The notes beneath the pieces are model-generated. The model searched no databases and had not been told where the DNA came from. It worked only from the letters and a program-made list of their open reading frames with translations. Position numbers and translations under genes: made by a program. 64,000 nucleotides of DNA from Victivallales bacterium (GTDB lineage: Bacteria; Verrucomicrobiota; Lentisphaeria; Victivallales; UBA1829), in assembly GCA_016285345.1 (NCBI GenBank), contig JAEEQN010000010.1, positions 3,465 to 67,464 on the forward strand, read 5' to 3'. Below, piece after piece: positions 4,204 through 61,802 of the stretch. Every line of letters starts with the position of its first letter. The first letter of the stretch is position 1.

Positions 4204-6120
4204 GTGAAATTGAGAACCATCACACTCGGAATCGTCCTCGCGGCGACCGCCGCCCTGCCCGCCTGCATCTGCACGCAAAACGGATCGTCCGCCCCACAGG
4301 AAACCGCGATCCATCATATCTACCGGGGCAATCCGCTCGCCACGCGGTCGGACCTCCAGCGCGCCGCCGTCGATGTGCTCCGCCCCCTGCTCCCATACTA
4401 CTCGAAGAACGGCGCACGTCTGCATCAGGGATTCACTGGTGCGAGCTACCCGGACAGCACTGCGGAGATGGAGGCGTTCTCCCGTCCCGTGTGGGCGCTC
4501 GGCCCGCTCTGGGCGGGCGGCGGCGATGATCCGGAGCTGCGCGACGTCTGCGTGCGCGGCCTGATCGCGGGCACCGATCCGGCGAATCCCGAGTACTGGG
4601 GCAACGTCGGCGACTACGACCAGAAGATCGTCGAGATGGCGGCGATCGGGCTGGCGCTGGCGATCGCGCCGGAAAAAGTCTGGGATCCGCTGACGAAGGA
4701 ACAGCAGGACAACCTGTACAAATGGCTGAACAACGCGAACCTCCGCAAAGCCTGGCCGTGCAACTGGGAGATGTTCCGCGTGGTCGTGAACATCGGATTC
4801 CGCCGCGTCGGGCGTCCCTACGACAAAAAATCGGTCGAAACCGCGCTGAACGCCATGGAGCCGTGGTATCTCGGCAACGGATGGTACACCGACGGCGAAA
4901 ACGCCCACGCCGACCACTACAACTCCTGGGGCATGCACTTCTACTGCCTGCTGTACGCCGCGCTCATGAAGGACGAGGACCCCGTCCGCGCCGAGCTCTA
5001 CAAGGAGCGCGCCCGCGTCTTCGCGCAGGACTACATGTATTATTTCGGCGACGACGGCTCCGCGATCCCGTACGGACGCAGCCTCGCCTACCGGTTCGCA
5101 GAAGCGGCGTTCTGGGCGGCATACGCCTACGCGGACGTCGGCGGGATCGAACCCGGCGTCCTGAAGGGGCTCTTCCTGCGGAACATGCGGAAATGGCTCA
5201 GCCGTCCGATCTTCGACACGGGCGGCGTCCTGACGGTCGGCTACGCGTACCCGAACATGAGCATGGCGGAGAGCTACAACGGATTCGGCTCGGTCTACTG
5301 GGGCATGAAGTCGTTCCTCGTGCTCGCCCTCCCCGAGGACCATCCGTTCTGGGCGGCCGAAGAACTCCCGATGCCGGAGCTGCCCGCCTCGCGCCGCATG
5401 GACGGTCCGCACTTCATCGCCCAGCGCGACGGCTCGCACGCCGTATTCTTCGCCGCCGGGCAGAAACCGCGCATGCAGCATACGCACGGACAGGCGAAAT
5501 ACGAGAAGTTCGCCTACTCCAATTTGTACGGATTCGGCGTCCCGAAGGGCCCCTACGGGCTCTCCCAGATCGTCCCCGACTCCATGCTCGCCGTAACCGA
5601 CGCCGGCAGCGACCGCTACGCCGTGAAGCGCGACACGAAGGACTACGAAGTCACCGACGACTGGATCCGCACCGACTGGTCCCCGCTCATGGGCGTCACG
5701 ATCCGCACCTGGATCGTCCCCGCCCTGCCCTGGCATGTCCGCATCCACGAAATCACATCCGACCGAACGCTCCAGACCTTCGACGGCGGATTCGCGTTCC
5801 CCGCCGATGGCGTTTCAGCAAAGACCGACCGTAAGTCCGTCTTCGTCTCGCAGTCCGGCGGCATGTCCTGCGGAGCCGTCGACCTCTCCGGCGGCCGCAC
5901 CGCGGTCAACCAGAGCACGGAGCCGAACACGAATCTGATCCTGCCGCGCGCGACCATCCCCGGACTTCAGGGCAACGTCCCGAAGGGCACGACCACGATC
6001 GTTTCCGCGTTCTACTGCGGCAATAGCGACCGGGGAGAAACGCCGTCCGTGACGACCTCGGACGATGCCTACACGGTCCGGATCGGCGGCAGGACCGTTG
6101 TGATCCCTCGCAGGAAATAA
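4204..6120 (+). CDS. DUF2264-family lipoprotein (GH154-like putative glycoside hydrolase)
   Basis: 638-aa ORF with a GTG start. Signal peptide plus lipobox (LAATAALPAC). Sequence blocks typical of DUF2264 proteins: YPDSTAEMEAFSRPVWALGPLW, GNGWYTDGE, AIPYGRSLAYRFA. Confidence 0.8.
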   Translation: MKLRTITLGIVLAATAALPACICTQNGSSAPQETAIHHIYRGNPLATRSDLQRAAVDVLRPLLPYYSKNGARLHQGFTGASYPDSTAEMEAFSRPVWALGPLWAGGGDDPELRDVCVRGLIAGTDPANPEYWGNVGDYDQKIVEMAAIGLALAIAPEKVWDPLTKEQQDNLYKWLNNANLRKAWPCNWEMFRVVVNIGFRRVGRPYDKKSVETALNAMEPWYLGNGWYTDGENAHADHYNSWGMHFYCLLYAALMKDEDPVRAELYKERARVFAQDYMYYFGDDGSAIPYGRSLAYRFAEAAFWAAYAYADVGGIEPGVLKGLFLRNMRKWLSRPIFDTGGVLTVGYAYPNMSMAESYNGFGSVYWGMKSFLVLALPEDHPFWAAEELPMPELPASRRMDGPHFIAQRDGSHAVFFAAGQKPRMQHTHGQAKYEKFAYSNLYGFGVPKGPYGLSQIVPDSMLAVTDAGSDRYAVKRDTKDYEVTDDWIRTDWSPLMGVTIRTWIVPALPWHVRIHEITSDRTLQTFDGGFAFPADGVSAKTDRKSVFVSQSGGMSCGAVDLSGGRTAVNQSTEPNTNLILPRATIPGLQGNVPKGTTTIVSAFYCGNSDRGETPSVTTSDDAYTVRIGGRTVVIPRRK

Positions 6121-6246: not shown

Positions 6247-8229
6247 ATGAACCGTAAATCGACCGGAAGCATGCTCCTCGCCCTGATCGCCATGACCGTC
6301 GGCGCGACCGCCTGCCAGTCCGCCCCAGTGCCGGAAGCCGATCCCGAAGCCTCCGTCAAGGGCACCATGACCGTGAACATGAACGACAAGCTCAAGATCT
6401 CCGACACCATGTTCGGTATCTTCTTCGAGGATATCAACTACGGCGCGGACGGCGGCCTTTACGCCGAGCTCGTGGCGAACCGCGACTTCGAATGCACCCC
6501 GGCCGACGCGCGCGGCTGGAGCGCGAAGAAGTTCTGGGCCGTCGACGGCGGCAACATGAAGTTCGACATCGCCACCAGCGATCCGATCCACGCGAACAAT
6601 CCGCACTACGCCGTGATCTCCGTCGACGCGGTCGGCCCCCGCCTCATCAACGAAGGCTTCGGCGGTTTCCGCTATGAAAAGGGCGCGGACTACAACTTCT
6701 CCATGTTCGCCCGCCAGCAGGGCGCCAAGTCCGTCAAGATTGAAGTCGGCCTCCTCTCCGACACCGGCGCGGTCCTCGCATCCAAAACGGTCACGGTGGA
6801 CGACAAGACCTGGGACAAGGTCGATTTCACCCTCACCGCCAACGCCGGCAACTCCACCGCCGACGCCTGCGGCAAGTTCTACCTGAAGCCCCTCACCGCC
6901 GGCGCGGAAGTCGCCGTCGACATGGTCTCCCTCTTCCCGAAGGACACCTTCAAGGGCCGCAAGAACGGTCTCCGCAAGGACCTCGCCCAGACGCTCGCCG
7001 ACCTGAAGCCTCAGTTCGTCCGCTTCCCCGGCGGCTGCGTGGCGCACGGCAACAGCTGGCAGGACGACTGCTACTACTGGAAAGATTCCGTCGGCTCGCT
7101 TGAAGAACGCAAACCGATCAAGAACCGCTGGGGCTACCACCAGACCCGCGGCCTCGGCTACTTCGAATACTTCCAGTTCTGCGAAGACATCGGCGCGTAC
7201 GCACTCCCGATCATCACCGTCGGCGTCGACTGCCAGTTCACCGGCGGCCAGCAGGCCGTCCCGATGGACCAGATGGGCCGCATCGTCCAGGACGCCCTCG
7301 ACCTCGTCGAATTCGCCAACGGCTCCACCGACACCCAGTGGGGCGCGCTCCGCGCGAAGATGGGTCATCCGAAGCCGTTCGGCCTGAAATATATCGGCCT
7401 CGGCAACGAGGAACAGATCACCGACGCATTCGAACAGCGCTTCAAAATGGTCAACGACGCGCTCGTCGCCAAGTATCCCGACATCGTCGTGGTCGGCACC
7501 GTCGGACCCGGCGCTTCCGGACGCGACTACGACCGCGGCTGGAGATTCGCCCGTCAGGAGAAACTCCCGATCGTCGACGAGCACTTCTACATGAACCCGA
7601 ACTGGTTCGTGGACAGCGCGCAGCACCGCTATGACAACTACGACCGCACCGGCCCGAAGGTCTACGCAGGCGAATATGCCGCCCACGCGCAGGGCAATCC
7701 CCGCCCGAACACCATCGAGACCGCCCTCGACGAGGCCATCTTCCTGACCGGCGTCGAACGCAACGGCGACGTCGTCGTGATGTCCTCCTACGCGCCGCTC
7801 CTCGGCAAGCACGGCAACATGCAGTGGACCCCGAACATGATCTACTTCTCGAACACGAAGATCGACAAGACCACGACCTACGAGGTTCAGAAGCTCTTCG
7901 GCGCGAACGCGGGCACGAACTACCTGAAGAACAAGCTCGACTTCGGCGGCGCGCTCGACGCCCGCCAGACGCTCAGAGTCGCCGCCTCCGCCGTCCAGAC
8001 CAGGGACGGAGACACCGTCCTGAAGTACGTCAACACCCTCGACCAGGCCGTCTCCATCACCGTCACGCTCGACAACGGCAAAGGCATCCCCGCCTCCGCG
8101 AAGCGCACCGTCCTCACCGGACCCGCCTTCACCGGCAAGGAATACACGCTCACCGACAACTACATCAAGCTCGGCGAAAAGTTCACCGTGAACCTCCCCG
8201 CCCACTCCATGACCGTCATCCGCTTCTGA
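6247..8229 (+). CDS. alpha-L-arabinofuranosidase, GH51, lipoprotein
   Basis: 660-aa ORF. Lipobox (TVGATAC). Blocks FGIFFEDINYGADGGLYAELVANRDFE, FVRFPGGCVAHGN, acid/base motif GLGNEE and YAGEYAAH are typical of GH51 AbfA-type enzymes. Confidence 0.9.
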   Translation: MNRKSTGSMLLALIAMTVGATACQSAPVPEADPEASVKGTMTVNMNDKLKISDTMFGIFFEDINYGADGGLYAELVANRDFECTPADARGWSAKKFWAVDGGNMKFDIATSDPIHANNPHYAVISVDAVGPRLINEGFGGFRYEKGADYNFSMFARQQGAKSVKIEVGLLSDTGAVLASKTVTVDDKTWDKVDFTLTANAGNSTADACGKFYLKPLTAGAEVAVDMVSLFPKDTFKGRKNGLRKDLAQTLADLKPQFVRFPGGCVAHGNSWQDDCYYWKDSVGSLEERKPIKNRWGYHQTRGLGYFEYFQFCEDIGAYALPIITVGVDCQFTGGQQAVPMDQMGRIVQDALDLVEFANGSTDTQWGALRAKMGHPKPFGLKYIGLGNEEQITDAFEQRFKMVNDALVAKYPDIVVVGTVGPGASGRDYDRGWRFARQEKLPIVDEHFYMNPNWFVDSAQHRYDNYDRTGPKVYAGEYAAHAQGNPRPNTIETALDEAIFLTGVERNGDVVVMSSYAPLLGKHGNMQWTPNMIYFSNTKIDKTTTYEVQKLFGANAGTNYLKNKLDFGGALDARQTLRVAASAVQTRDGDTVLKYVNTLDQAVSITVTLDNGKGIPASAKRTVLTGPAFTGKEYTLTDNYIKLGEKFTVNLPAHSMTVIRF

Positions 8230-8273
8230 GCGGACGGCGGTTTGCCTGAGACAGGGCAAACCTGACGACACAG

Positions 8274-8310
8274 GCCTGTTCCGTCCGCAATGTTCGGAAC
8301 AGGCTTTTTT
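8274..8310 (+). terminator. rho-independent terminator after the GH51 gene
   Basis: gcctgttccg (8274-8283) / cggaacaggc (8295-8304) stem followed by TTTTTT (8305-8310). Confidence 0.7.
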
Positions 8311-8515
8311 CCGCGGTTTTCCGCCTCGGAACGAAGAAAAAACAAAAAAAAGAAAAGATTTTATTCGGAAGATACAATATTTCGCATTGTCGAAACGTTA
8401 TTTGATTGGTCCGAGTCGATCCGGGCATCGCCCGCTCCCATGGATCCGGCGAAAAAAACGCCGGAAGCCCGGACACCAACGTTAATACGACAGACAAGAG
8501 AAAGGAACACCGGTC

Positions 8516-15293: not shown

Positions 15294-15583
15294 TGTTCTT
15301 TCCTGTTTCGTATGTAGGGTTGGCCCGCGGACAATGTTCCAGCTATTTACAACCAACATAGCTTTTTTTCCGCTTTCTCCTATCAATATAACTTCTTTTC
15401 TTCTTGATTTCAAGTTCCTGAAAGAGATAATGACGTTTTTTTCCGAATTGTAATAGAACGCGGTTTGAATCCATCCCGGAATCCGGCTCAAAACAGCATC
15501 GCCACCTTGAAACAGTGGAAAAAGATGTTATATTTATCCACATCAATTCAATTATAACGGAACAAACCCAACAGAACCGCAGC

Positions 15584-17326
15584 ATGAATCACGACCGGAC
15601 ACAGACAGGAATTCCGCCGGATTCCGTTATCCGCGACAACGATGCGGCATCGATACTGAAGCCGCCACGACCCGAGCGTCGTCAGGATGCGCGCCGCCGG
15701 AATCTTTTTATCCTGGTCTGCTGCGTTCTGTTCGCGCTCCTGACGGCGATCCGGGTCCTGAACATCTGGAGCAACACGCCCGAATACGACGAAATATGGA
15801 CGGTCCAGCACTACAGGAATCTCCCGGTTCCGGCCGTTTTTTCCGACGTCTCCACGCCGAACAACCATGTGTTGAACACGCTCGGGATCAAGTTTTTTCT
15901 GAACATACTCCCTCCTCACAATTTCGCAATAAGACTGACTGCGCTGCTGGGGTTCTGCGGATTATTCGTGATCCTGCTCAGAGCGGTGCTTCTGCTCCTG
16001 AAAAACAATACGGCGCGCGCAGGGGTCCTGACGGCGGTGCTTCTGAACGGCATGCTGCTTCATTACGCCGAAACGGCCCGCGGGTATTCGCTTCAGGCGT
16101 TTTTCGTGTTCGGCCTGCTGTTCTCCCTGCTCTGCTTCTCGTTCAGACCGCGGGAAAACCGTATGTTCAACGCCGTCATGTGGCTGCTGTGCGCGGAGGG
16201 CGCATGCCTGTCCGTCTCGTCCGGCGTGCTGTACGTCGTGATCCTGACCGGATTGTGGGTGCTGCTGTATGTGCCGTTCAGGGACGGCATCAAAAAGATC
16301 TGGCATGACAACCGTCCGCTGATCCTCGCCGGAATACTCTGGAGTGTGTTCGTTCTCATCTGGTACGGCGGCAACTGTTCGCGGTTCGCGGAAGGACGCG
16401 CCATGTTCGGCGACTCGTTCCGGACTCCGGCGCAGTTTCTGACCTACTGTTTCGATGTCGCGCGGGACACCGGATTGCTCTGGACGCTGCCGCTTCTAGT
16501 GCTCTGCGGTATCCTGCTTCAGGGAAAACCCCAATGGCGGATTTGTGCGCTGACCGGAGGCGCAATTGTTCTTTTGTTCGCCTCGGCGCTGGTCACAAAA
16601 GGAGGCCCCGCGCGCATTTACCTGGCGCTGTTCGCTCCGGCGGTCTTCGGGCTCGGCGCGGCGGCGGATATCCTGCTCTCGGAAAACACGAAGTTCAAAA
16701 AAGCAAGTCTCTGGCTCCTGCTGATCCTGGCCGCGGTCTGCATTTTCTGTTCGGACAGAGACCGCCGGAAGGCCGCCGCGCCGGATCTGGCCGCAGTGTT
16801 CCGCAAGGTTGCAAAGATGGATTCCCGGATATTCGTCTCCTACAAATCGACGGACCTGTACGTGCTGCGGATGCTGTTCCGGGAGGACATCATGCCGGAC
16901 AACGACGAACGCCAGCGCGCCCCCGAAATGCTTCTGGTGCTGAACGATAATACGATTTCCGCCGTTCATGCCTGCGATCCGCCCGTCGAGGAGTTCGTGC
17001 AGCCGGGCGCGAATCCGGCGGACAGCGGATATGTCGTGCCCGGGGAAACACTTCAATTCTGGCTCTACCGGTTGCGACCGCTCACCCCCGGCGAAACACT
17101 GGACGGGAAAGCGGTCCTGTGCTTCTCGGACGACACCATCCCCGACGACATGAAACACTGGCTGATCGACAACTGCGGGATCGTGAACAGCATGCTTTTC
17201 TCGCCGGAGACCACACGTATCTGCTACGGATTCTCCGGATCGAGGCTGAACGTGACCGCCGACATGCTGCTTGAGATGGAAGAAGCCGCCAAGGGCGGAC
17301 TCTTCTTCAGGATCGTTTCGGACTGA
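15584..17326 (+). CDS. polytopic membrane protein, ArnT/PMT_2 (GT39/GT83)-like glycosyltransferase candidate
   Basis: The ORF 15515..17326 has 10 or more hydrophobic helices. An early-loop YDEIWT motif resembles the DE motif of ArnT-like transferases. It has a soluble tail of about 200 aa. The start is uncertain: 15515, or the ATG at 15584 (MNHDRT). Confidence 0.45.
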   Translation: MNHDRTQTGIPPDSVIRDNDAASILKPPRPERRQDARRRNLFILVCCVLFALLTAIRVLNIWSNTPEYDEIWTVQHYRNLPVPAVFSDVSTPNNHVLNTLGIKFFLNILPPHNFAIRLTALLGFCGLFVILLRAVLLLLKNNTARAGVLTAVLLNGMLLHYAETARGYSLQAFFVFGLLFSLLCFSFRPRENRMFNAVMWLLCAEGACLSVSSGVLYVVILTGLWVLLYVPFRDGIKKIWHDNRPLILAGILWSVFVLIWYGGNCSRFAEGRAMFGDSFRTPAQFLTYCFDVARDTGLLWTLPLLVLCGILLQGKPQWRICALTGGAIVLLFASALVTKGGPARIYLALFAPAVFGLGAAADILLSENTKFKKASLWLLLILAAVCIFCSDRDRRKAAAPDLAAVFRKVAKMDSRIFVSYKSTDLYVLRMLFREDIMPDNDERQRAPEMLLVLNDNTISAVHACDPPVEEFVQPGANPADSGYVVPGETLQFWLYRLRPLTPGETLDGKAVLCFSDDTIPDDMKHWLIDNCGIVNSMLFSPETTRICYGFSGSRLNVTADMLLEMEEAAKGGLFFRIVSD

Positions 17327-17344
17327 ACACATCCATCCACGCCC

Positions 17345-19195
17345 TCACAGCACCGGGTAGCTGCCGAGGAGTTTGAGCTCTTCCGTGAGCGGCTTCAGGC
17401 CAGCGAGCGCGGCGGACACGCGCGGCGCGTTGGCCGCCCCCTCGATATCGACGAAGAACCGGTAGTGCCAGCAGCCGGAGCCGGAGGGACGGCTCTCGAT
17501 CATGGTGAGCGTGACGCCGGCGTTCTTGAACGGCTCGAGGCAGTCGTGCAGCGCGCCGAAGCGTTCGCGCGCAGTGAAGCAGATGCAGCATTTCGCGTGC
17601 GGCATGAGCGTGTTTTCCGCGCGGGACAGGATCAGGAAGCGTGTGCGGTTGTCCGGCGTGTCCTGAATGGAACGGTCCAGGATGTTCAGGTGGTACTGCG
17701 CGGCGATGCTCTCCCCGCCGATGACTGCGGCGTTCGGGCTGAGCGCGGCGAACTCGGCGGCGCGCGCGTTGGAGCCCACGCCCACGGTCTCGACGTCCGG
17801 GAAATTGCGTTCGAGGTATTTCCGGCACTGGCCGAGCGACTGCACATGACTGTAGATGACGCCGATCTTCTCCTTCGGCACGGACGCCATGAGGCAGTGA
17901 TGGATGTTCATGGACGTCTCGGCGTATATCTTCAGCGTGGTCTCCGCCAGCACGTCCAGCGTGCCGATCACGACGCCCTCCGTGGTGTTCTCGACCGGCA
18001 CGCAGCCGTATTCGCATTCGCCGGTCTCGACCGCCGCGAAGACGTTCTGGATGCCGGAGCACGGACGGTACTCGGCGGTCTCGGCGAAGACCTTCCGCGC
18101 GGCCTCGTGCGTGAACGTCCCGGCTGGCCCGAGGTACGCCACGCGCGGCTTGGAGGTGGAGATGGAGTGCGGCGTGCCGTGGCGCAGGCGTTCCGCGGCA
18201 TTCAGGATCAGGCGTTCTGTCTCGTCGAACCCGATGCAGGCGTCCGTGACGGATACGCGCGGATCGGGCGCGACGCCTGGCATCAGGTTCTGTTTGCCGG
18301 GCAGGAGAGAGCTTTCGAGCATCAGGCCAACGATGCCGTCGTTCCCGGCGAGCTTCTGCGCCAGGACGTCCTCGAAGACGATGTGCTGGCGGCCGGGGTC
18401 GCGCCGCGAATTTCCGTGGCTGCAGTCGACCGCGACCGTGCGCGGGATTCCCGCGTTTTCGAGCTTGCGGAGCGCTGCGTCGATGCACGCGGCGTAGTAG
18501 TTTTCGCCGGAGATGCCGCCGCGCAGGACCAGGTGGCAGTACGGATTGCCCTCGCTGCGGATGATCCCGCTGCGGCCGTCGTGCATGATCCCGATGTAGC
18601 TGTGCGGCGCGCGGGCGGCGCAGATGGCGTCCACGGCGATCTGCAGGTTGCCGTCGGTGCTGTTCTTGAACCCGACGGGCATATCGAGCGAGCTCGCGAG
18701 CTGGCGATGCGTCTGGGATTCCGTAGTGCGCGCGCCGATCCCCGCCCATGAAACGAGCTCGGCGAGGTAATTCGCGATAGCCGGGTCGAGCAGTTCCGTG
18801 GCGGTGCCGAGCCCGTACGCCGACACGTCCAGCAGGAGCTTGCGGGCGAGTTCCAGGCCGCGCGCGATGTCGCTGCCGCCGTCCAGGTCCGGGTCGTACA
18901 CCAGTCCCTTCCAGCCGAGCGTGGTGCGCGGTTTCTCGAAATAGCACCGCATCACGATCTTGACCTCGTCGGAGACGCGTTCCGAAAGCTTCGCGAGCTT
19001 CTCCGCGTATTCCAGCGCGGCGGGCACGTTGTGGATCGAGCACGGCCCGGCGATGACCACCAGACGCTTGTCCGTCCGGTCGAAGATGCGCCGCAGTTCC
19101 GCGCGGTTCCGGTTGATGTGCTCCACGATGTCCGCGTTCGGCGCGAGTTCGGACGCGAGCTGTTCGGGCGATTTGATGGGCTGTTCCTGGTTCAT
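17345..19195 (-). CDS. bifunctional 3-deoxy-7-phosphoheptulonate (DAHP) synthase class I / prephenate dehydratase with C-terminal ACT domain
   Basis: 616-aa ORF. The N-terminal 350 aa are collinear with E. coli AroG (LVVIAGPCSIH, KIVMRCYFEKPRTTLGWKGL, IGARTTESQTHR, GFKNSTDG, DCSHGNS). They are followed by PDT (RVAYLGPAGTFTHEAA, NRTRFL) and ACT (TMIESRPS...YRFFVDIEG). Confidence 0.9.
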   Translation of the reverse strand: MNQEQPIKSPEQLASELAPNADIVEHINRNRAELRRIFDRTDKRLVVIAGPCSIHNVPAALEYAEKLAKLSERVSDEVKIVMRCYFEKPRTTLGWKGLVYDPDLDGGSDIARGLELARKLLLDVSAYGLGTATELLDPAIANYLAELVSWAGIGARTTESQTHRQLASSLDMPVGFKNSTDGNLQIAVDAICAARAPHSYIGIMHDGRSGIIRSEGNPYCHLVLRGGISGENYYAACIDAALRKLENAGIPRTVAVDCSHGNSRRDPGRQHIVFEDVLAQKLAGNDGIVGLMLESSLLPGKQNLMPGVAPDPRVSVTDACIGFDETERLILNAAERLRHGTPHSISTSKPRVAYLGPAGTFTHEAARKVFAETAEYRPCSGIQNVFAAVETGECEYGCVPVENTTEGVVIGTLDVLAETTLKIYAETSMNIHHCLMASVPKEKIGVIYSHVQSLGQCRKYLERNFPDVETVGVGSNARAAEFAALSPNAAVIGGESIAAQYHLNILDRSIQDTPDNRTRFLILSRAENTLMPHAKCCICFTARERFGALHDCLEPFKNAGVTLTMIESRPSGSGCWHYRFFVDIEGAANAPRVSAALAGLKPLTEELKLLGSYPVL

Positions 19196-19243
19196 TTTGT
19201 TGTCCTTCGGGTTGTATTTGGTATTTTGAGAAGTCGTTTCGGG

Positions 19244-19283
19244 AAAAAGAAAACCGCATTCGGGGTTCGGGGCCCGGATGCGG
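19244..19283 (-). terminator. intrinsic terminator hairpin 2 in the 5' leader of the DAHPS-PDT gene
   Basis: Minus-strand RNA CCGCAUCCGGG...CCCGAAUGCGG (one mismatch) followed by UUUUCUUUUU. It lies 48 nt upstream of the ATG at 19195. Confidence 0.6.
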
Positions 19284-19296
19284 CTGTGTCTGCTGG

Positions 19297-19337
19297 AAAA
19301 AGAAAACGGGTCGGGCCTTCTTGGGGCCGAACCCGTC
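19297..19337 (-). terminator. intrinsic terminator hairpin 1 (attenuator 3:4 element)
   Basis: Minus-strand RNA CGGGUUCGGCC-CCAAGAA-GGCCCGACCCG followed by UUUUCUUUUU. It has the same tail as hairpin 2. Confidence 0.6.
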
Positions 19338-19379
19338 TGATGTCATGACTTTCGCGTGTACACGTGCAAACGGGCTTCG

Positions 19380-19445
19380 TCAGGCGGTAAATCGCCAGAA
19401 GAAGCCGTAAAATCGAATGCTGTTGTTCACGGAAATCGTTTTCAT
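19380..19445 (-). CDS. candidate aromatic-rich leader peptide (21 aa) MKTISVNNSIRFYGFFWRFTA
   Basis: Hand translation of the minus strand: ATG at 19445, TGA at 19382-19380. Six of eight consecutive codons (FYGFFWRF) encode Phe/Tyr/Trp. It lies between a promoter and two terminators upstream of an aromatic biosynthesis gene. It is too short for the ORF track. Confidence 0.55.
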   Translation of the reverse strand: MKTISVNNSIRFYGFFWRFTA

Positions 19446-19454
19446 AATGGTTTT

Positions 19455-19483
19455 ACTATACACCCGTTTTCCATAAAAGTCAA
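19455..19483 (-). promoter_or_regulatory. sigma70-like promoter of the leader/DAHPS-PDT transcript
   Basis: Minus strand TTGACT (19483-19478), 17 nt spacer, TATAGT (19460-19455). Only 9 nt separate the -10 box from the leader ATG, so the leader ORF would be nearly leaderless. Confidence 0.5.
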
Positions 19484-19694
19484 CCGCCCATCTCATCTTT
19501 TTTCGAGAAAAAACGATCTGCCGCTCGGACGTCTCTCCTACTCCTCCACACTCTGTTTCTCATCATCTTCATTCTGTTTTTCTGTTCATTCTATACGGAT
19601 AATCTTCTTTTTAAGCAAAGGTACTTGAAAAAGAATAAAATACTGCTATATTACTCTATACAATCTTAAACGTATTGTTAATCCGTCCGAGAAT

Positions 19695-21089
19695 ATGGAC
19701 AATCATTACCTGCCATGGAAAAAGGTTACCATTACCATGAATGAAAATTCTCAAATGTTCGAATACCCCCTTTTTCCTCCTGTCGTTCCCCAACGTTCTT
19801 TTGGAGAGAAAAAGGTTTTTTTCATTGACTTGTTTGCGGGGATTGGTGGCATTAGAAAAGGCTTTGAATTAGCATGCAAGGCTTTGGGTTTAGACTCTCA
19901 ATGTGTTTTTACATCAGAAATAAAACCTCATGCAATACAAGTCTTACAGCAGAATCATCCTGATGAAAGAGTTTTTGGAGATATTACAAAAATAGATGCA
20001 GCCATTATTCCCGATTTTGATTTTCTGCTTGCGGGCTTTCCCTGTCAAGCTTTTTCTTCCGCGGGGAAAAGACTTGGTTTTTTGGACACAAGAGGAACGC
20101 TTTTTTTTGAAGTAGAAAGAATTCTAAAAGAGAAAAAACCTTTTGGCTTTATTCTTGAAAATGTTGAGGGGCTTGTTAATCACGACAAAGAGAATCCGAA
20201 AGACAAAATCGGAGAAACACTGAAAACAATACTTCAGCATTTAGACTCGTTGGGATATAAAGTCTCATGGCGAGTCTTAAATGCCAAGAACTTCGGCGTT
20301 CCGCAGGAAAGAAAAAGGATATATATTGTCGGAACATCGAAAGAAAAGCCGGAATTAGATCATTTCCCTCACAGGACAAGTGTACTTGGAAACGTTCTTG
20401 AAAGCGGTTTGCCAACCGAAAAAACAGCTTTCATACAAAAAGTTCTTGATCATTACGCTATTGAAGAATTATATGGAAAATCTATAAAAGATAAACGTGG
20501 GGGAATTAATAATATTCATAGTTGGGATATAGAGTATAAAGGTTCTGTTTCCGCCGAGCAGAAACAATTACTGTCTCTTATGCTTAAAGAACGCAGAAAA
20601 AAACGTTGGGCAGAAGAATACGGAATTGATTGGATGGATGGAATGCCTCTGACTATTGATCAGATAAGAACTTTTTACAACAATCCAAATCTACAGGAGA
20701 TGTTGGAGGATCTCGTTAAAAAGAAATATATCAAATGTGAACATCCCAAAAAGAAAGTTGGAAATATTCGTGTTCAAGATAAAACACTCCCTTTGGGGTA
20801 CAATATCGTAGCGGGAAAAATGTCTTTTGAGATTAGCAAGATCCTCTCGCCCAAGGAAGTTGCCCCCACTCTTGTTGCCATGGATATGCAACATTTATTT
20901 GTCGCAGATCATGGAGGTTTACGCCCGTTATCTCTACGAGAAGGATTACGCCTTTTTGGATACCCGGATGATTTTAAATTTGATATTGCTCGTGATTTAG
21001 GATTTGACTTACTCGGCAATACCGTTGTAGTCCCTGTCATATCTGACGTGGCAACTCGCATTTTAAATATTTATACAAAAACACTTTAA
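19695..21089 (+). CDS. DNA (cytosine-5)-methyltransferase, type II
   Basis: 464-aa ORF. Motif I FIDLFAGIGGIRKGFE, IV GFPCQAFSSAG, VI ENV, VIII QERKRIYIVG, IX RPLSLREGLRLFGYPDDF, X GNTVVVPV. There is a long variable region between VIII and IX. The start may be 19695 or 19737. Confidence 0.92.
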   Translation: MDNHYLPWKKVTITMNENSQMFEYPLFPPVVPQRSFGEKKVFFIDLFAGIGGIRKGFELACKALGLDSQCVFTSEIKPHAIQVLQQNHPDERVFGDITKIDAAIIPDFDFLLAGFPCQAFSSAGKRLGFLDTRGTLFFEVERILKEKKPFGFILENVEGLVNHDKENPKDKIGETLKTILQHLDSLGYKVSWRVLNAKNFGVPQERKRIYIVGTSKEKPELDHFPHRTSVLGNVLESGLPTEKTAFIQKVLDHYAIEELYGKSIKDKRGGINNIHSWDIEYKGSVSAEQKQLLSLMLKERRKKRWAEEYGIDWMDGMPLTIDQIRTFYNNPNLQEMLEDLVKKKYIKCEHPKKKVGNIRVQDKTLPLGYNIVAGKMSFEISKILSPKEVAPTLVAMDMQHLFVADHGGLRPLSLREGLRLFGYPDDFKFDIARDLGFDLLGNTVVVPVISDVATRILNIYTKTL

Positions 21090-21099
21090 GGGGAAAAGA

Positions 21100-21834
21100 A
21101 TGCCTAGACTGTCTGCACAAGAATTGTACAATCGTCTATTACAAGAACATATTTATGATTTAACGGGTCAAATCAGATTTGAACTTGGAGATGTAAATAT
21201 CATTGTAAAGCAAAGGGACGTTGTTGGTAATATTATTCAAGAATGGCTACAAGGATGGCTTGACCTTAGAAGAATTGAGTATTCGGTTAATGAAAACACA
21301 CAAATGCCTCCGGATTTCTTTCTTGACCCTACAAATCTAACTCATAATATGCTCGAAGTAAAAGCGTTTTATCGCAATGCTTCTCCAGGTTTTGACATTG
21401 CGGACTTCCGCATGTATGAAGAAGAGATTATTGAAAGACCTTATATGCTTGACGTTGATTATCTCATTTTCGGATATGATATGAGTGATGATGGAATAGT
21501 AACAGTTAGAGACCTTTGGCTAAAGAAGGTTTGGGAAATAACACGACGAATGGAGAATTGGCCTCTCAATCTCCAGGTTAAAGCTGGAGTTGTTCATAAA
21601 ATACGCCCTGGGGTATGGTATACAGCAAACACAAGACAACAGTTTAGAATGTTTAATTGCCTCGAGGATTTTGTATCAGCTATTGAAGAAACGGTCTACC
21701 AAAATCCTAGAACTCACGATGCGGCCGCAACATGGCGGACATCATTCTCAAATAGTTATTTTCAGTTTTATCAAAGAAACATCATCATTCCCAGATGGCA
21801 AGACATTAGAGATAATTATGTGGTGAGGAATTAA
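21100..21834 (+). CDS. type II restriction endonuclease candidate (PD-(D/E)XK)
   Basis: 244-aa ORF, 10 nt after the methyltransferase stop, with the same AT-rich composition. PPDFFLD...(13 aa)...LEVKAF fits PD-X(n)-(D/E)XK. Its specificity is unknown. Confidence 0.6.
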   Translation: MPRLSAQELYNRLLQEHIYDLTGQIRFELGDVNIIVKQRDVVGNIIQEWLQGWLDLRRIEYSVNENTQMPPDFFLDPTNLTHNMLEVKAFYRNASPGFDIADFRMYEEEIIERPYMLDVDYLIFGYDMSDDGIVTVRDLWLKKVWEITRRMENWPLNLQVKAGVVHKIRPGVWYTANTRQQFRMFNCLEDFVSAIEETVYQNPRTHDAAATWRTSFSNSYFQFYQRNIIIPRWQDIRDNYVVRN

Positions 21835-21911
21835 CCCCCAACATAATTTCTTATTTTTATTGTCTAATACATCCTCCCCCAAAAGAGGAAATGTTGTTTT
21901 ATAGATAGAAT

Positions 21912-21951
21912 AAAAAAGCCTCGGCCTCAGAATTATCTCTTGAGCCGAGGC
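21912..21951 (-). terminator. terminator after the RloC-like gene (hairpin also usable for the convergent REase gene)
   Basis: gcctcggc (21918-21925) / gccgaggc (21944-21951) stem. On the minus strand it is followed by TTTTTT (plus-strand A6 at 21912-21917). Confidence 0.6.
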
Positions 21952-22001
21952 ATATGTCAAGTATTCTTTACAAAAAAGATTATTACATACCTATCTGAAA
22001 C

Positions 22002-24272
22002 TTATTGTGCTTGTTCAGTATTGTTTTGCGCACCAATCTTCTTCATCATCATATTATAATGTGACAAATGGCCGCTTACTTCAAAAATACGCTTAAAGAC
22101 CTTTTTATATTGATTCAAAGTATCTGTCTCTGGTTCAAACGCCAAATCATCTGGTATTGTATGAGATCCACCATTTATCCATTGAAACAAAGATTTGGCA
22201 ATTATCTTATCCTCTATGGAAACTATTTTCTTAATAATATCATCTTTGTCTTCCCCTCCAAGTAACGTAAAATAGAACTCAATGATTCGACGCATAACGT
22301 TTTGTATTGATATAAATGATGTTTCATTCTCTTCATTTAGCTCCCTCCAGAGCAATTCATAAGATGTCGCGATGGGATTCTTCATTCCATAAGGCTTAAT
22401 TGATGCTATATTATTGTTTTTTCTAATGATCCAATAATTCACAAAACTGCGTTCTATAGCCTTTCCTCCAACATGAGATGCTTCTTTATGAAAAAAGACA
22501 TTGTGAGTCAAAACAAACAGCTGAGTTGCTCTACAGGAGTTTGTATTGTCTTTAATTCTATCTATTAGCTCCTGCACCATATTGCTAACTATATACAAAA
22601 CAGTACTGTCTAAACTACAAATAGGATCGTCAAGAACAATGATTTTTTTATCAGCAATATGTCCTTGCTCTATTGATCCGTCAACTTTTTGCATAAAATA
22701 AAGGAATGTTAAAAAAGTTTCTTCTCCTTCACTCAATGTGTTTACTACTTTGGTTCCATCATCTCTCTTGATGCAGTAATAATTTTTCTTGTTATCTGCT
22801 GGTTGTATTGAGAAGTTTGTAAAGCCATATATACGAAGATAGTTGTTGATTTTGTTAATACTGGTTTCCACGCCAGTAAGTTTCTCTTCCCTTTCCTCAA
22901 TCTCTGTTTTAAGACGATTGATGTCCTGTTCCTTTCTGCTGATAGTAATATTTCTTCCTTTTATTTCTTTTTCAAACTTATCAATCTCTTTCAAATACGT
23001 TTTTATTAAGTCCTCTTCCTGAGAAAGGCATGTAGTCCATATGTCATCTGTAAGTCTTTTGGATTCTTGTGCATGATTATCAACTAGCTGATTATAATCT
23101 TCAATCATTTTATTAGCCAAAACAAACTGGTTTAGTATTTCATTAACCAAATCTGAAACATCTGCAATCACAATTTTCTTTCCTGGCTCGGATATTTTTT
23201 CTTCGATTGTTTTTATATTATTTTCCAATTTATCTTTTAACAAATCTTTTCTAGTTGCAAGCAATTCGACATTAAGTTGTCCAATCTGAACTGCAGCATC
23301 TCTATCTTGTATTACAGTTTCAAGTGCATAAACAATTTGTTTCGCGAAACCATCATAATAATCATGTTTTTCTTTTAAACAGTTCTTTTTTCTCTCATAC
23401 TCTTTATCAAAAAAGGACTCAAGTTTTTGTCTAAATTCATCTGTGATTGTTTCTTGCTGGCAGAAAGGGCATTTCCTTGAATTATCATGAAGATACTGGC
23501 GACCTTGACTAACCCACGAAGCATTATCAAGTTCTTTTATTAAAGCAGATATATTTACATCTGTATTACCTACTATGACACTTTCCCAAATACTGTCATT
23601 CTTGATTTGGTTAAGGTTAAAAAGGAGATCTTGAATATCTCTGACATAAAACATATTACATTTTTCGAGCTTTGAAGAATAGAGCGCTTGAGAACGCTTT
23701 AAAAGATCATCTCTGTCACATATTCTTCCCGGATCTCCCGATATACCTGTTTTACGTTTAATAACTTCTCCAGAAAAACGCTCTTTGCTTCCTCTAAAAC
23801 CTTCAAACGCTTTAGAAAAGTCTTTGTCATTCTTTTTTAGAATTCTCTCCCACACAGCATCCCTAAACTTTGCCTCACAAATAGGCTTGTCTTCTTTTTC
23901 ACATTTATCTAATAACCCTTTTTCAAATACTAAATCTTTTTCTTTTTGGTCCAAGGCTCTCATTAATTGGTCTATTTCCTCGTTTTCTTTTATATTTTCA
24001 CTCCCCAAGGTAAAAATCCCGGGCATTTCTTCTTGTAAATTCTCTTGTCGAAACTCCCTGTTATAAACCTCTATTGTCTCATGGTTAGGATTATCCCACT
24101 CAATAGAAGATGATTCAAACCGAGGATTATTATCAAGATATTTTTTAAGAAAGGTACTAATGGTTGATTTTCCGCTTCCGTTTGCGCCAAAAATGAAATT
24201 GACTTTCTTGCAATCAGAAATCTCTGCTTGCTGAAACGGAACGCAGTTGTTCATTTTGATTGATTTAATCAT
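22002..24272 (-). CDS. AAA_13/Rad50-like ABC ATPase with zinc hook and C-terminal PrrC/RloC-type anticodon-nuclease-like motif (RloC-like)
   Basis: 756-aa ORF. Walker A GANGSGKST. Long Lys/Glu-rich coiled-coil insert containing CPFCQQE (CxxC hook). ABC signature LSEGEETFLTFLYF. Walker B/D-loop KIIVLDDPICSLD. C-terminal MRRIIEFYF...NGGSHTIPDD gives R-x3-E then H 39 aa later. Confidence 0.75.
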   Translation of the reverse strand: MIKSIKMNNCVPFQQAEISDCKKVNFIFGANGSGKSTISTFLKKYLDNNPRFESSSIEWDNPNHETIEVYNREFRQENLQEEMPGIFTLGSENIKENEEIDQLMRALDQKEKDLVFEKGLLDKCEKEDKPICEAKFRDAVWERILKKNDKDFSKAFEGFRGSKERFSGEVIKRKTGISGDPGRICDRDDLLKRSQALYSSKLEKCNMFYVRDIQDLLFNLNQIKNDSIWESVIVGNTDVNISALIKELDNASWVSQGRQYLHDNSRKCPFCQQETITDEFRQKLESFFDKEYERKKNCLKEKHDYYDGFAKQIVYALETVIQDRDAAVQIGQLNVELLATRKDLLKDKLENNIKTIEEKISEPGKKIVIADVSDLVNEILNQFVLANKMIEDYNQLVDNHAQESKRLTDDIWTTCLSQEEDLIKTYLKEIDKFEKEIKGRNITISRKEQDINRLKTEIEEREEKLTGVETSINKINNYLRIYGFTNFSIQPADNKKNYYCIKRDDGTKVVNTLSEGEETFLTFLYFMQKVDGSIEQGHIADKKIIVLDDPICSLDSTVLYIVSNMVQELIDRIKDNTNSCRATQLFVLTHNVFFHKEASHVGGKAIERSFVNYWIIRKNNNIASIKPYGMKNPIATSYELLWRELNEENETSFISIQNVMRRIIEFYFTLLGGEDKDDIIKKIVSIEDKIIAKSLFQWINGGSHTIPDDLAFEPETDTLNQYKKVFKRIFEVSGHLSHYNMMMKKIGAQNNTEQAQ

Positions 24273-41975: not shown

Positions 41976-43829
41976 TTAAAAACTCCAGATTTCTTTTGCA
42001 ATAGCATACAGTAGTTGACTTCGTTTTGACAAAGCGTTTTTGTCAAAATCATCGATTGGTTCAAAACCGATGTTGTATTTGGAAACAAAACGATCATTGA
42101 AATCTTTTAAACAGAGATTCGAGTGATAAGTGTCGGCTACGAGCGTGCGGCCCCATTCGAGGCCATTGGAGTATGTTTTCAATTTGTCATGATAAGGCTC
42201 ATTGCCCGAGCTGATATTATCTCTTCCTCTAAGAATCAGGAGTCCTCCTAAACGGTTCCGGAGATTTTCAAATTCTTCTTCATTGGAAAACTTCGATATG
42301 CTTTCCTGATTTCTCGAAAAAATGTGTTCCACATGGAATCCGCTCTTCCATGCGGTGCCCTTTGTAGAAATGTCATAAACGGGAAAAACCATTTCTTTTC
42401 CAATATTATCGCAAATATATTTTTCAATTCGAGCAAAGAAATAACGTAATGTGCGTTTGTCCATATTTGTGAAATCCCGTTGCAGAAAACGTTCATACTC
42501 CAAGAGAGATGTTATTCTTTCCTTTCCTGTTTTTCTTATAATCTCTTTTTCAAGAAGGTCGTTGAATACTTGTCTGTACTCGTTTGGCTGCTTGCCCGGC
42601 AATAATTCATTCAGTTTGAATACCAAATCCTGGAAATCATTACTGTCATAGATTCCATTTAAACGCAATAACATGTTAAGGCGATCATGTTCAAATGCGA
42701 TGGAATGTATTTTTTCCGCTTCATGCGGATCATTTTCACAGCATGCAGCAAGCACATTTTGATACTGACCATTCAATTCATTGATTTTATTGTCGTATTC
42801 CAAAAACTCATCCTGATTCTCCCGTATTATTTTATACAGCCGAGAATAGTATGTTAGTTTTTTTGATATGAAATCCTTGACGTTGGATGACGCATTTTGA
42901 TCTTGACGACGAAATTGAAGATCGGATGCTATGCTGTTTTCAGGCTCGAATATGTATCTGTGATATGATTTGCTAAGTGTTATTAGAAGTTTTGAGTTTG
43001 TTGAAAAAACATATTTTGCCCTTAAATAATCAATAAAGAAACTGTCTTCCAAATCCTTTATTTGAGCAAGTGATTTTTCCCATAGATCCGCATATTTTTC
43101 CGTATCGCTCTTCGAAAGCGTTCCAAGCAGCTTTCCCTTTAATATCTCAAAAGGTTTCAACGGCTCACCACGGTCATTGATTACTTCAAAAACCATAGGC
43201 GTGTCATCTTTGTCAATGGATAATTCAACCAGAACCAGGCGTTCGAGAAAATAATGCGCAAAAACAAGCAGTTTGTGCTCTGAATAATTCTTTTGTTCAA
43301 AAAAGGACACGATATCCTTATAGCGATTAAGCAACGTTTCTTCGGTTGTATTCTCGAAGGAATCGGGCGGATTGTTTCCATCGTTCTGGAAAATGCAGTC
43401 CATGATGCGTTTGCGTTTCGAATGATTAATGCAATAAATGTTTCCGGCATACCGGTCAGCGGAAAAGATACAATCCTTCAAAACATTCCTGATATTCTCG
43501 TCTGTTATTCTGTGAAAAAGATACGTTGCAATAAGTGTAAGAGTGGTCAGTCGTTGTTGCCCGTCAACGATAAAGACTTTTCCTTCGACCTTGTTTGTTA
43601 TAAACACATTCAGGTAATACCAGGAATACTTGGACATAATTTCTTCGGAAAGCTCTGAATTGCCATACTGTGTATATGAGTTCTCAAAGGACCAGCAAAT
43701 GTCCTTTAATAATATTTCAACAGACTCCCTGGTCCAAACATATTCCCGTTGATAGAAATCAATATAATATTTTTTTGAACGAAGGCTGTTTTCAACGGTT
43801 AGCTTTTGCGGATCGATAGTTGTTGCCAT
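41976..43829 (-). CDS. GmrSD-family type IV (modification-dependent) restriction endonuclease, DUF262 + DUF1524
   Basis: 617-aa ORF. DUF262 motifs YYIDFYQREYVW and VDGQQRLTTLTL. C-terminal DUF1524 His-Me finger block FHVEHIFSRNQ...N. AGGAGA RBS. Confidence 0.85.
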   Translation of the reverse strand: MATTIDPQKLTVENSLRSKKYYIDFYQREYVWTRESVEILLKDICWSFENSYTQYGNSELSEEIMSKYSWYYLNVFITNKVEGKVFIVDGQQRLTTLTLIATYLFHRITDENIRNVLKDCIFSADRYAGNIYCINHSKRKRIMDCIFQNDGNNPPDSFENTTEETLLNRYKDIVSFFEQKNYSEHKLLVFAHYFLERLVLVELSIDKDDTPMVFEVINDRGEPLKPFEILKGKLLGTLSKSDTEKYADLWEKSLAQIKDLEDSFFIDYLRAKYVFSTNSKLLITLSKSYHRYIFEPENSIASDLQFRRQDQNASSNVKDFISKKLTYYSRLYKIIRENQDEFLEYDNKINELNGQYQNVLAACCENDPHEAEKIHSIAFEHDRLNMLLRLNGIYDSNDFQDLVFKLNELLPGKQPNEYRQVFNDLLEKEIIRKTGKERITSLLEYERFLQRDFTNMDKRTLRYFFARIEKYICDNIGKEMVFPVYDISTKGTAWKSGFHVEHIFSRNQESISKFSNEEEFENLRNRLGGLLILRGRDNISSGNEPYHDKLKTYSNGLEWGRTLVADTYHSNLCLKDFNDRFVSKYNIGFEPIDDFDKNALSKRSQLLYAIAKEIWSF

Positions 43830-43995
43830 TATTGTCTCCTATTTAGTGAAATGCTTTGTTTTTTCTCGTTGAGAACCGTGTTTGTCTGTTATCATGAGTT
43901 TTTTTGCTGATAGTTCAAACTATGTGAGAACTATAACGCATTTTGGAAAAAAATCAAGTCTATTTTTAAAGAATGTTTATCACATTGTTTCTCTG

Positions 43996-44024
43996 TTGTT
44001 AAAAGAACTGGGGGCTGTTATATT
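43996..44024 (+). promoter_or_regulatory. sigma70-like promoter pointing into a terminator-bounded non-coding segment
   Basis: TTGTTA (43996-44001), 17 nt spacer, TATATT (44019-44024). Confidence 0.4.
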
Positions 44025-61725: not shown

Positions 61726-61802
61726 TGGCGGTGGCAGCGGGGATCGAACCCACGACCTGCTCTTTAGGAGAGAGCCGCTCTATCCAACTGAGCTATGCCA
61801 CC
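61726..61802 (-). tRNA. tRNA-Arg (anticodon CCU), CCA encoded
   Basis: Hand-folded cloverleaf: acceptor GGTGGCA/TGCCACC, D stem GCTC/GAGC, anticodon stem GCTCT/AGAGC with loop CTCCTAA, T stem GTGGG/CCCGC with loop TTCGATC, discriminator G, CCA. 77 nt. Confidence 0.9.

Follow-up and report, generated by a model that had tools for sequence, protein, structure and literature searches.

A probable leader-peptide attenuator with two terminators upstream of a DAHP synthase-prephenate dehydratase fusion gene in a rumen Victivallales genome

In a 64-kb stretch of a rumen Victivallales (Lentisphaerota) genome, hereafter the window, a gene for a DAHP synthase-prephenate dehydratase fusion protein is preceded by a promoter, a short open reading frame (ORF) rich in aromatic codons and two terminator hairpins, and we consider it likely (a probability of roughly 0.78, judged from sequence comparison and predicted folds) that this leader is a functional ribosome-mediated (leader-peptide) transcription attenuator of the fusion gene, responding mainly to phenylalanine. 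As the unit is conserved across a group of Lentisphaerota it is very probably a classic ribosome-stalling switch, for which we propose that the charging of tRNA-Phe is the main signal and that the tyrosine and tryptophan codons contribute; the start site, the translation of the ORF, the stalling, the order of pairing and the regulatory output are what we infer from these comparisons. All elements of the attenuator lie on the minus strand, and they are listed here with the gene that they would control:

19455..19483, minus strand: promoter, with a -35 box TTGACT (19483..19478), a 17-nt spacer and a -10 box TATAGT (19460..19455), matching 10 of 12 consensus positions in a promoter scan.
19380..19445, minus strand: leader ORF of 21 codons plus stop (ATG at 19445, TGA at 19382..19380), encoding the peptide MKTISVNNSIRFYGFFWRFTA and lacking a Shine-Dalgarno sequence.
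19389..19412, minus strand: regulatory codons F12 Y13 G14 F15 F16 W17 R18 F19, of which six out of eight are aromatic.
19350..19435, minus strand: P1-P2 'locked' hairpin (the 1:2 or anti-antiterminator structure), -33 kcal/mol, z -4.2.
19366..19376, minus strand: segment 2, the switching strand AGCCCGUUUGC, starting 4 nt past the stop codon.
19297..19339, minus strand: terminator 1, with a stem-loop at 19338..19304 and a U tract to 19297; -19.5 to -20 kcal/mol, z -3.3.
19244..19285, minus strand: terminator 2, with a stem-loop at 19285..19252 and a U tract to 19244; -18 to -18.5 kcal/mol, z -3.1.
19196..19243, minus strand: A/C-rich 5' untranslated region (UTR) of 48 nt, with a ribosome-binding site GAAGGA (19208..19203) 7 nt before the ATG at 19195.
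17345..19195, minus strand: regulated gene of 616 amino acids, a fusion of class I DAHP synthase, prephenate dehydratase and ACT domains (Pfam).

The initial annotation of this DNA had read the TTGACT-17 nt-TATAGT promoter (which the promoter scan also found), the 21-codon ORF with Phe, Tyr or Trp at six of eight consecutive residues, the two tandem GC-rich hairpins with their U tracts and the 48-nt spacer with GAAGGA, and had proposed from these a leader-peptide attenuator. Each of these descriptions held, and the attenuator proposal is now supported by the conserved frame, position, length and aromatic content of the ORF and by covariation in P1, P2 and terminator 1.

Conservation was assessed first of all with a scan of one genome per species, which gave 18 loci with a full-length fusion orthologue (57-100% protein identity), mostly in metagenome-assembled genomes from the rumen or gut, the labelled ones being Lentisphaerae, Lentisphaeria, Victivallales or Victivallaceae and some being only "uncultured bacterium". 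A protein search with contig look-ups added more, including an Oligosphaeraceae-labelled protein at 56% and a further protein at 49%, giving a total of 28 distinct upstream regions (49-100% protein identity) in 12 lineages grouped by leader peptide sequence. All 28 regions carry the same arrangement of a -10 box, a gap of 6-10 nt, an ATG, a short ORF, a stop codon at or close to (a few nt) the 3' arm of a hairpin and one or two terminators, and the ORF is homologous throughout, down to 49% identity of the downstream protein. Its length is 17-21 codons, apart from 35 codons in L012, where the ancestral stop appears to have mutated. The comparison of orthologous upstream regions for which the initial annotation had called has yielded a short aromatic ORF and covarying helices across 12 lineages. 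Two distant fusions, L137 (48% identity) and L109 (50%), are without the leader element, and the upstream context of L109 is different and GC-rich by inspection. A scan of metagenomes by means of a protein alignment returned mostly single-domain DAHP synthases of other phyla, the only fusions being those of L053, L054 and L109.

Two observations on the more distant loci may be recorded here. In L137 (positions 1250-1500) a 34-codon ORF begins 5 nt past a TATATT box and has an S-C-R-F motif that recalls the leader of L017, with no clear terminator, and this ORF may be a decayed or remodelled leader. The Oligosphaeraceae loci L134 and L135 have, about 150 nt ahead of the leader promoter (positions 60-180 of each), an array of TCTAGAGATTC/TCTAGGGGC-like units in tandem.

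The coding content of the leader ORF is what would be expected of a sensor of aromatic amino acids. Six of the 21 codons in the window's leader are aromatic, and across the 12 lineages 73 of 244 in-frame codons are aromatic (30%; 50 of them Phe) compared to 31 of 232 (13%) and 23 of 232 (10%) in the two other frames. Shuffled ORFs gave a mean of 26.6 ± 4.3 and none of 20000 shuffles reached 73, which is not a strict probability because the lineages share ancestry. Only the leader frame is open, the other two containing stops. The last aromatic codon lies one to three non-aromatic codons before the stop in all 12 lineages, which matches the ribosome-footprint geometry needed for attenuation. 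Example leader peptides are MKTTTVNSFRFFGFFWRFYA, MKTMQKYNFRFTGFYCFMQ, MKKNNTYSIRFNRLFWRCR, MKMHNMKFWRFFGFDSFRR and MKIYNVTSCRFFSFSFFCD, and further examples are MTKEMSGTFRFFEYQWFIR, MQKGLAMHRFYWFWRFSR, MNYMYSFRFFKGFGSFR and MTKRTTNHKYFFSFWRFIV. The N-terminal half of the peptide drifts freely, even inside the closest clade, while the frame is kept, as expected if the leader peptide product has no function of its own. An in-frame ATG further upstream (19496, giving an ORF of 38 amino acids) was considered as the conserved start and rejected, because it overlaps with the promoter and L005, L009 and L018 lack it.

Every leader contains the dicodon CGA-UUU, which occurs twice in the window (19415..19410 and 19394..19389), the regulatory codon cluster taking in the whole of the second copy and the UUU of the first. 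Both codons are otherwise avoided: in the window's fusion gene CGA accounts for none of 41 Arg codons and UUU for none of 16 Phe codons, CGA is absent from most of the fusion orthologues, and in these genomes CGA is the rarest Arg codon and UUU the disfavoured Phe codon. The codon following CGA-UUU alternates between UAC, UUC and UUU in eight of the 12 lineages and is unpaired in the lowest-energy fold of the window's leader and in the folds of several other lineages, which suggests that it is aromatic identity, and not base pairing, that is conserved at this position. The structural position of the dicodon is not the same in L141, and hence a pairing constraint on CGA-UUU is not obvious.

The initial annotation had remarked that the ORF has no Shine-Dalgarno sequence and would be almost leaderless, and this proved to be a general feature, the -10 box ending 6-10 nt before the first ATG in all 17 lineages examined for it. 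The -10-like boxes of the orthologues are TATAGT, TATATT, TACAGT and similar sequences, with a -35-like box 16-18 nt further upstream in nearly all 28 regions. This fixed spacing implies that the transcript would start at the AUG or within about 3 nt of it; in the window, where the ATG (19445) lies 9 nt past the -10 box, the predicted start is near 19448, 3 nt 5' of the AUG. A Shine-Dalgarno sequence would not fit in before the leader ATG, whereas the structural gene has its GAAGGA, and so the leader ORF is probably leaderless or almost leaderless.

The predicted fold of the entire 255-nt leader has -75.5 kcal/mol (z -4.3), and most of the ORF is drawn into the P1-P2 hairpin. P1 joins the N-terminal codons to the sequence after the conserved box (19435..19418 with 19368..19350), and in P2 the aromatic codons are paired with the region of the stop codon together with the box itself (19406..19393 with 19386..19373), such that the 3' strand of P2 contains the stop codon (19382..19380). 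The pairing of the Tyr-Gly-Phe codons with the post-stop GAAGCC(C)GU, which the initial annotation had pointed out, is borne out by its energy: ACGGCUUC (19408..19401) with GAAGCC(C)GU (19378..19370) gives -19.2 kcal/mol (z -5.1), and none of 200 shuffles was as stable. The same P1-P2 architecture, extending from the AUG to about 36 nt past the stop, was found in all 11 lineages folded (z -2.3 to -5.1). In the 28 upstream regions the stop codon comes directly before the conserved box GCCCG (GGCU in two lineages).

Covariation within these helices was sought at first with RNAalifold on a plain MAFFT alignment of 20 leaders, which gave no consensus pairs because the helix registers differ among leaders, and this was replaced by alignment to a covariance model, R1, built from the close clade only. 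R1 finds the distant leaders, with E values of about 1e-9 for L011, L013, L014 and L138, 2e-6 for L141 and 2e-4 for L139 and L136, and with a weaker signal for L134, L016, L140 and L017. Over P1, P2 and terminator 1 together, 92.4% of cells in 15 clean R1 matches are paired, compared to 84.2 ± 0.7% in shuffles and 29-42% in slid controls, and double changes are seen in 22 of 40 pairs as against 9.1 ± 1.9, a number reached in none of 500 shuffles. Compensatory changes affect 9 of 11 pairs in P1, 6 of 12 in P2 and 5 of 12 in terminator 1, and the double changes are plain in the raw sequences, as in GGCUUC:GAAGCC, GGCUCU:AGAGCC, GGUUUUGAC:GUUAAAGCC and AGCUUCAG:CUGAGGCU.

Applied to the window, R1 matched the leader itself, an overlapping reverse-strand echo and, weakly (E 1.3), positions 8231..8312, which are a gene-end terminator; a by-eye check of terminator-like hairpins on both strands of the window gave no second leader-like unit. 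An Rfam search of 18900..19900 found no family at E <= 10, Phe_leader and T-box included, and an Rfam scan of the whole window at gathering score gave no match in the leader, the sole match being a tRNA gene at 61729..61802 on the minus strand.

A long hairpin with covarying stems and conserved nucleotides in or beside an internal loop is also what a riboswitch might look like, and a ligand or an RNA-binding protein acting on P1-P2, with its invariant CGAUUU and GCCCG, could choose between terminator and antiterminator with the ORF being incidental. The lack of a Shine-Dalgarno sequence would suit such a structured RNA switch, as would the keeping of CGAUUU at the nucleotide level despite the disfavoured codons that it brings into the ORF. 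We regard this explanation as very unlikely, however, given that the aromatic enrichment is confined to the frame of the ORF while the other frames hold stops, that the ATG is invariant at its fixed 6-10 nt from the -10 box, that the stop codon always abuts the switching strand and that the N-terminal codons drift while the frame is kept. The displaced CGAUUU of L141 and the lack of a matching family in the Rfam search, T-box included, also speak against it.

An attenuator of the leader-peptide kind requires that the strand released by a stalled ribosome can capture a terminator, and segment 2 has three possible partners, namely the 5' arms of P2, of terminator 1 and of terminator 2. The initial annotation had described a 7-bp antiterminator; the pairing to the 5' arm of terminator 1 is indeed present, though its length needs correction, being 10 bp including 2 G-U pairs, between AGCCCGUUUG (19376..19367) and CAGACGGGUU (19339..19330), the latter being the whole lower 5' arm of terminator 1. 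The pairing potential for this antiterminator is shown: its 10 pairs are formed in 93% of cells in 15 sequences, through conservation and U-A/U-G exchanges, and in every lineage the post-stop strand is able to pair with a terminator's 5' arm. The initial annotation had asked for folds of the leader RNA with the leader codons masked, and when the folds of each lineage were truncated at the loop of the first terminator the antiterminator formed with the ribosome placed at the aromatic codons and not with the ribosome at the stop codon (-20.1 compared to -9.5 kcal/mol in the window).

Terminator 2 had been thought to have no obvious partner, and this view has to be given up. Its 5' arm GCAUCCGGGC (19281..19272) complements segment 2, with GCCCG (19375..19371) opposite CGGGC (19276..19272) and UGC (19368..19366) opposite GCA (19281..19279) in the window. 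A scan of the 20-nt post-stop strand against all downstream windows of 14 nt ranked the 5' arm of terminator 2 as the best or second-best partner in all 12 two-terminator lineages, while the 5' arm of terminator 1 was among the top two in eight of them (-17.3 kcal/mol for terminator 1 and -16.5 for terminator 2 in the window, against a median of -4.8). The arm, GCAU(U)CCGGG(C), is unusually conserved in sequence in all lineages, and its eight pairs with segment 2 are formed in 92% of cells compared to 17-45% in slid controls (a hand-made, homology-anchored alignment of 11 lineages). For an intermediate with the ribosome stalled and the polymerase at the loop of terminator 2, the fold of lowest energy has a helix between the post-stop strand and the 5' arm of terminator 2 that encloses a folded terminator 1 in 12 of 12 lineages.

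Each hairpin is followed on its 3' side by the U tract TTTTCTTTTT, also given as UUUUCUUUUU, and one or two terminators are present in all 16 lineages examined for them; where there is only one it resembles terminator 2 in L012 and L017 and terminator 1 in L133 and L136, as judged by sequence. The distance from the stop codon to the U tract, about 80-90 nt in the Victivallales leader, resembles that of the trp leader. Beyond terminator 2 the 5' UTR (19196..19243) is unstructured in the centroid fold and has a weak 4-bp pairing in the lowest-energy fold. Another possibility for terminator 2, a chain model in which its 5' arm is captured by the 3' arm that terminator 1 has set free, was tried and rejected: the energies were no better than those of shuffles (z -2.3 to +1.4 in 12 lineages), and the compensatory change that L003/L005 have in the upper stem of terminator 1 would break this pairing.

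The mechanism that we envisage would run as follows. Transcription would start about 3 nt before the AUG and a ribosome would load on the leaderless or nearly leaderless 21-codon ORF. When aromatic aminoacyl-tRNAs are plentiful the ribosome would reach the UGA and cover AGCCCGUUUGC, or would leave and allow P1-P2 to re-form, and in either case terminators 1 and 2 would fold and transcription would end before the gene. A ribosome stalled on the Phe, Tyr or Trp codons, 3 to 10 codons before the stop, would instead hold the 5' side of P2 and leave the post-stop strand free. The ribosome footprint extends about 12-15 nt 3' of the A site, and with some 12 nt beyond the A site a ribosome at F12..F19 would open P2 and end before leader nucleotide 70; for this assumed footprint size a ribosome at the stop codon covers segment 2 and one at the regulatory codons leaves it free. 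The free strand would pair with the 5' arm of terminator 1 as that arm emerges. Terminator 1 could then fold once the polymerase has passed, because the hairpin (-19.5 kcal/mol) is more stable than the duplex, and its folding behind the polymerase would release the strand to pair with the 5' arm of terminator 2, such that the polymerase would pass both U tracts and transcribe the gene.

A more specific version of this scheme, which we offer tentatively and hold to be possible but doubtful, is that of an attenuator with two checkpoints, where a single antiterminator strand serves both in turn and CGA-UUU is a programmed slow-decoding site pacing the ribosome on a leaderless message. If there are two checkpoints, a stall would have to outlast the polymerase's travel of about 55 nt from terminator 1 to terminator 2, and brief pauses would be filtered out and the response sharpened. 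Rare regulatory codons raise sensitivity in the E. coli leu leader, and slow decoding is our best guess for the role of CGA-UUU.

Several observations weigh against the attenuator, and these concern both the comparative evidence and the RNA data. The alignment behind the double changes in 22 of 40 pairs was made with the covariance model and thereby fitted to the structure, a procedure that is biased towards pairing. Both antiterminator pairings are conserved mostly as invariant sequence: that of segment 2 with terminator 1 shows one double change, which is not above shuffles, and that of segment 2 with terminator 2 shows two (matched in 12 of 500 shuffles), both of them from L017 in the hand-anchored alignment, such that the covariation backing for the latter pairing is modest. 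Duplex energies compared to those of shuffled strands are marginal (z about -2 in about half of the lineages). In the RNA data, which consist of contigs assembled from rumen metatranscriptomes, several contigs extend into the promoter region and hence do not start at the predicted site, and in four deep runs from one study the conserved core of the coding sequence is covered 1000-6000 deep while the depth on the leader is at most 55, even at 80% likeness. This low leader depth is the main item on this side of the argument and is weak evidence, as the depth comes from the conserved coding cores of a mixed population and a missing leader in these runs is not decisive; the gene for a GH51 alpha-L-arabinofuranosidase (6247..8229), taken as a control, has zero depth on its 5' UTR and its first 20-150 nt in the same deep runs.

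In runs of low depth the contigs cover the leader. Two of them end at 19448 (X7) and 19450 (X2), which is no more than a hint of a start site, one adapter-flanked insert runs from 19430 to 19293 and so ends 4 nt past the U tract of terminator 1, and the contigs of X11, X13 and X5 are continuous through the leader and both terminators into the UTR or the coding sequence. Runs that contain the coding sequence are as many as those that contain the leader, and the idea of the leader as the more abundant of the two RNAs was given up.

The excess of coding-sequence over leader RNA in the four deep metatranscriptomes, together with several low-depth runs that hold leader RNA without the first 500 nt of the coding sequence, could be taken to mean that the leader is an independent small gene, whose product would be a small RNA or a hydrophobic micropeptide and which would have a promoter of its own and two terminators acting unconditionally, and that the fusion gene is transcribed from another promoter downstream of terminator 2. 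Motifs can be picked out by eye for such a promoter, namely, in the close clade, a (C/T)AAAAT that precedes the ATG of the gene by about 27 nt and, in L010/L054, a TTGACT/TTGACA after terminator 2, but these fail the promoter scan, which gave no site from terminator 2 to the ATG in any of the three loci scanned (the window, L054 and L013); in L054 and L013 the leader promoter is the only sigma-70-like site that the scan gives upstream of the fusion gene. In five lineages the last U tract and the ATG are only 17-27 nt apart (read from the sequences, not computed), which leaves no room for another promoter. An independent gene would leave unexplained why the post-stop strand is complementary to the 5' arms of both terminators and why aromatic codons stand ahead of an aromatic-pathway gene, the N-terminal half of its peptide is not conserved, and the control gene, which likewise lacks 5' UTR reads, shows the same behaviour as the leader. 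For these reasons we hold this explanation to be very unlikely. That promoter-like boxes, a short ORF and hairpins have merely coincided in a GC-rich intergenic region, where short ORFs and hairpins are common at 60% GC and a simple promoter scan of shuffled sequence gives 1.7 matches per 2 kb, can practically be dismissed, as the unit is kept with covariation in 28 of 28 orthologous loci in 12 lineages.

Some further features of the RNA data are of note in their own right. The fusion gene is among the most highly represented genes of this genome region in some rumen metatranscriptomes; it and the GH51 alpha-L-arabinofuranosidase gene both reach core depths of 1000-6000, about 100 times those of neighbouring genes, in four bovine rumen metatranscriptomes. 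The dominant population has, at 21 diagnostic sites, the bases found in most close-clade genomes and not those of the window. A 371-nt RNA contig of X20 (depth 45) matches the early codons of the fusion gene (19091..19188) and continues for 273 nt that are unlike the UTR and leader of the window, the first 30 nt of this unlike part having an in-frame TGA and no start codon, and this contig either comes from a strain whose upstream region is arranged differently or is a chimera of the assembly.

The regulated gene is itself unusual in its domain composition. Its DAHP synthase and prephenate dehydratase domains match Pfam at 7.7e-69 and 1.2e-60, followed by the ACT domain at 2e-05, the last with 24.7 bits, which is under the family's 27-bit cut-off. 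Among the matches listed for a protein search (at least 120), only about 18 clusters at 90% identity show the full-length combination of DAHP synthase, prephenate dehydratase and ACT, the single one with a name from its source being Oligosphaeraceae; one protein, P0076 (650 amino acids), has the fusion plus a chorismate mutase domain. No description of a DAHP synthase-prephenate dehydratase-ACT fusion was found in a quick literature search. In the window the gene is monocistronic, and the next real gene (15515..17326, plus strand) is convergent and is the only conserved neighbour. A minus-strand ORF of 679 codons in another frame (17307..19346) runs across both terminators and all of the fusion gene; GC-rich codon usage has probably produced it as a side effect, and its ATG is not kept outside the close clade.

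Immediately upstream of the leader promoter lies an island of low GC content (19695..24272; 33-38% compared to about 60%), ending about 200 nt from the -35 box and carrying three genes:

19695..21089, plus strand: C-5 cytosine methylase.
21100..21834, plus strand: NgoBV-type restriction endonuclease.
22002..24272, minus strand: AAA_13 ATPase.

The sequence just upstream of the promoter is common to L004 and L053 and not to other close genomes, and for this reason the island looks strain-variable. A second stretch of low GC content (36.8%) lies at 42001..44000, the rest of the window being roughly 60% GC.

If our reading is right, the element, which is conserved in Victivallales and Oligosphaeraceae, shows leader-peptide attenuation at work in the PVC (Planctomycetes-Verrucomicrobia-Chlamydiae) superphylum and implies that these bacteria are able to translate an ORF whose first codon is at, or about 3 nt away from, the message's 5' end. 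R1 provides an annotation model for an RNA element outside all Rfam families, and the shared-strand tandem terminators and the invariant CGA-UUU could show how attenuators tune their sensitivity. For rumen microbiology, the element suggests that aromatic amino acids are made on demand by these bacteria.

Leader-peptide attenuation is textbook material in Proteobacteria, and later reports have extended it to Actinomycetota, Firmicutes and Deinococcus. In 2010 Proteobacteria and Actinobacteria were said to be the only groups with known leader peptides, to which Firmicutes were then added (PMC2965389). A full-text literature search found no paper combining leader peptide, attenuation and Lentisphaerae, and the phrase 'tandem terminators' was in none of the papers listed in a search on attenuators, leader peptides and antiterminators. 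The initial annotation had expected a mixed-aromatic leader before such a fusion to be new in this kind of genome, and this holds as far as Lentisphaerae are concerned, none having been found there in the full-text search, while a mixed-aromatic leader of a DAHP synthase gene has a precedent in aroR, as summarised in a review (PMC11802643), and leaderless leader peptides have theirs (PMC4007540; bioRxiv 10.1101/834739).

The E. coli trp attenuator provides the canonical 1:2 / 2:3 / 3:4 model (summarised in PMC4007540 and PMC11802643), and the Victivallales leader resembles it in having segment 1 in the regulatory codons, segment 2 just past the stop and an intrinsic terminator as 3:4. It differs in that segment 2 has a third partner, the 5' arm of the second terminator, and in that the 1:2 hairpin (P1 + P2, -33 kcal/mol) spans almost the whole ORF. 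The predicted leaderless start would have parallels in the 14 leaderless leader peptides predicted in Deinococcus deserti (PMC4007540) and in the polycysteine leaderless short ORFs of mycobacteria (bioRxiv 10.1101/834739), which start at or about 1 nt from the 5' end and, like the Victivallales ORF, have no Shine-Dalgarno sequence and are enriched in the amino acid relevant to the gene that follows; start sites in those bacteria were mapped experimentally, whereas here they are deduced from the 6-10 nt spacing between -10 box and ATG.

The proposed working is also like that of E. coli pheL-pheA (PMC3082878, PMC11802643), where the gene of a prephenate dehydratase fusion is preceded by a short Phe-rich leader ORF with a terminator and an alternative antiterminator, the last Phe codon is followed by one to a few non-regulatory codons before the stop, and a stall at the Phe codons frees the strand that sequesters the terminator arm. 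In contrast to pheL-pheA, the Victivallales leader belongs to Lentisphaerota and not to Gammaproteobacteria, does not match the Rfam Phe_leader model (at E <= 10), has mixed Phe, Tyr and Trp codons in place of Phe runs and two terminators in place of one, and the fusion partner of the prephenate dehydratase is DAHP synthase and not chorismate mutase. A further parallel is aroR of C. glutamicum, which according to the review summary is a Phe-Tyr-Phe leader peptide before the aroF (DAHP synthase) operon acting by ribosome stalling (PMC11802643, citing Neshat 2014), with read-through reported to rise under Phe limitation (PMC11802643), and the Victivallales leader would likewise place a DAHP synthase gene under a mixed-aromatic leader peptide. 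As far as that summary goes, aroR is set apart by its host phylum (Actinomycetota) and its unrelated sequence, the Victivallales leader having six aromatic codons including Trp, two terminators and a DAHP synthase-prephenate dehydratase fusion as its target. What is new here is the phylum, an unrelated RNA family, and the presence of two terminators sharing one antiterminator strand.

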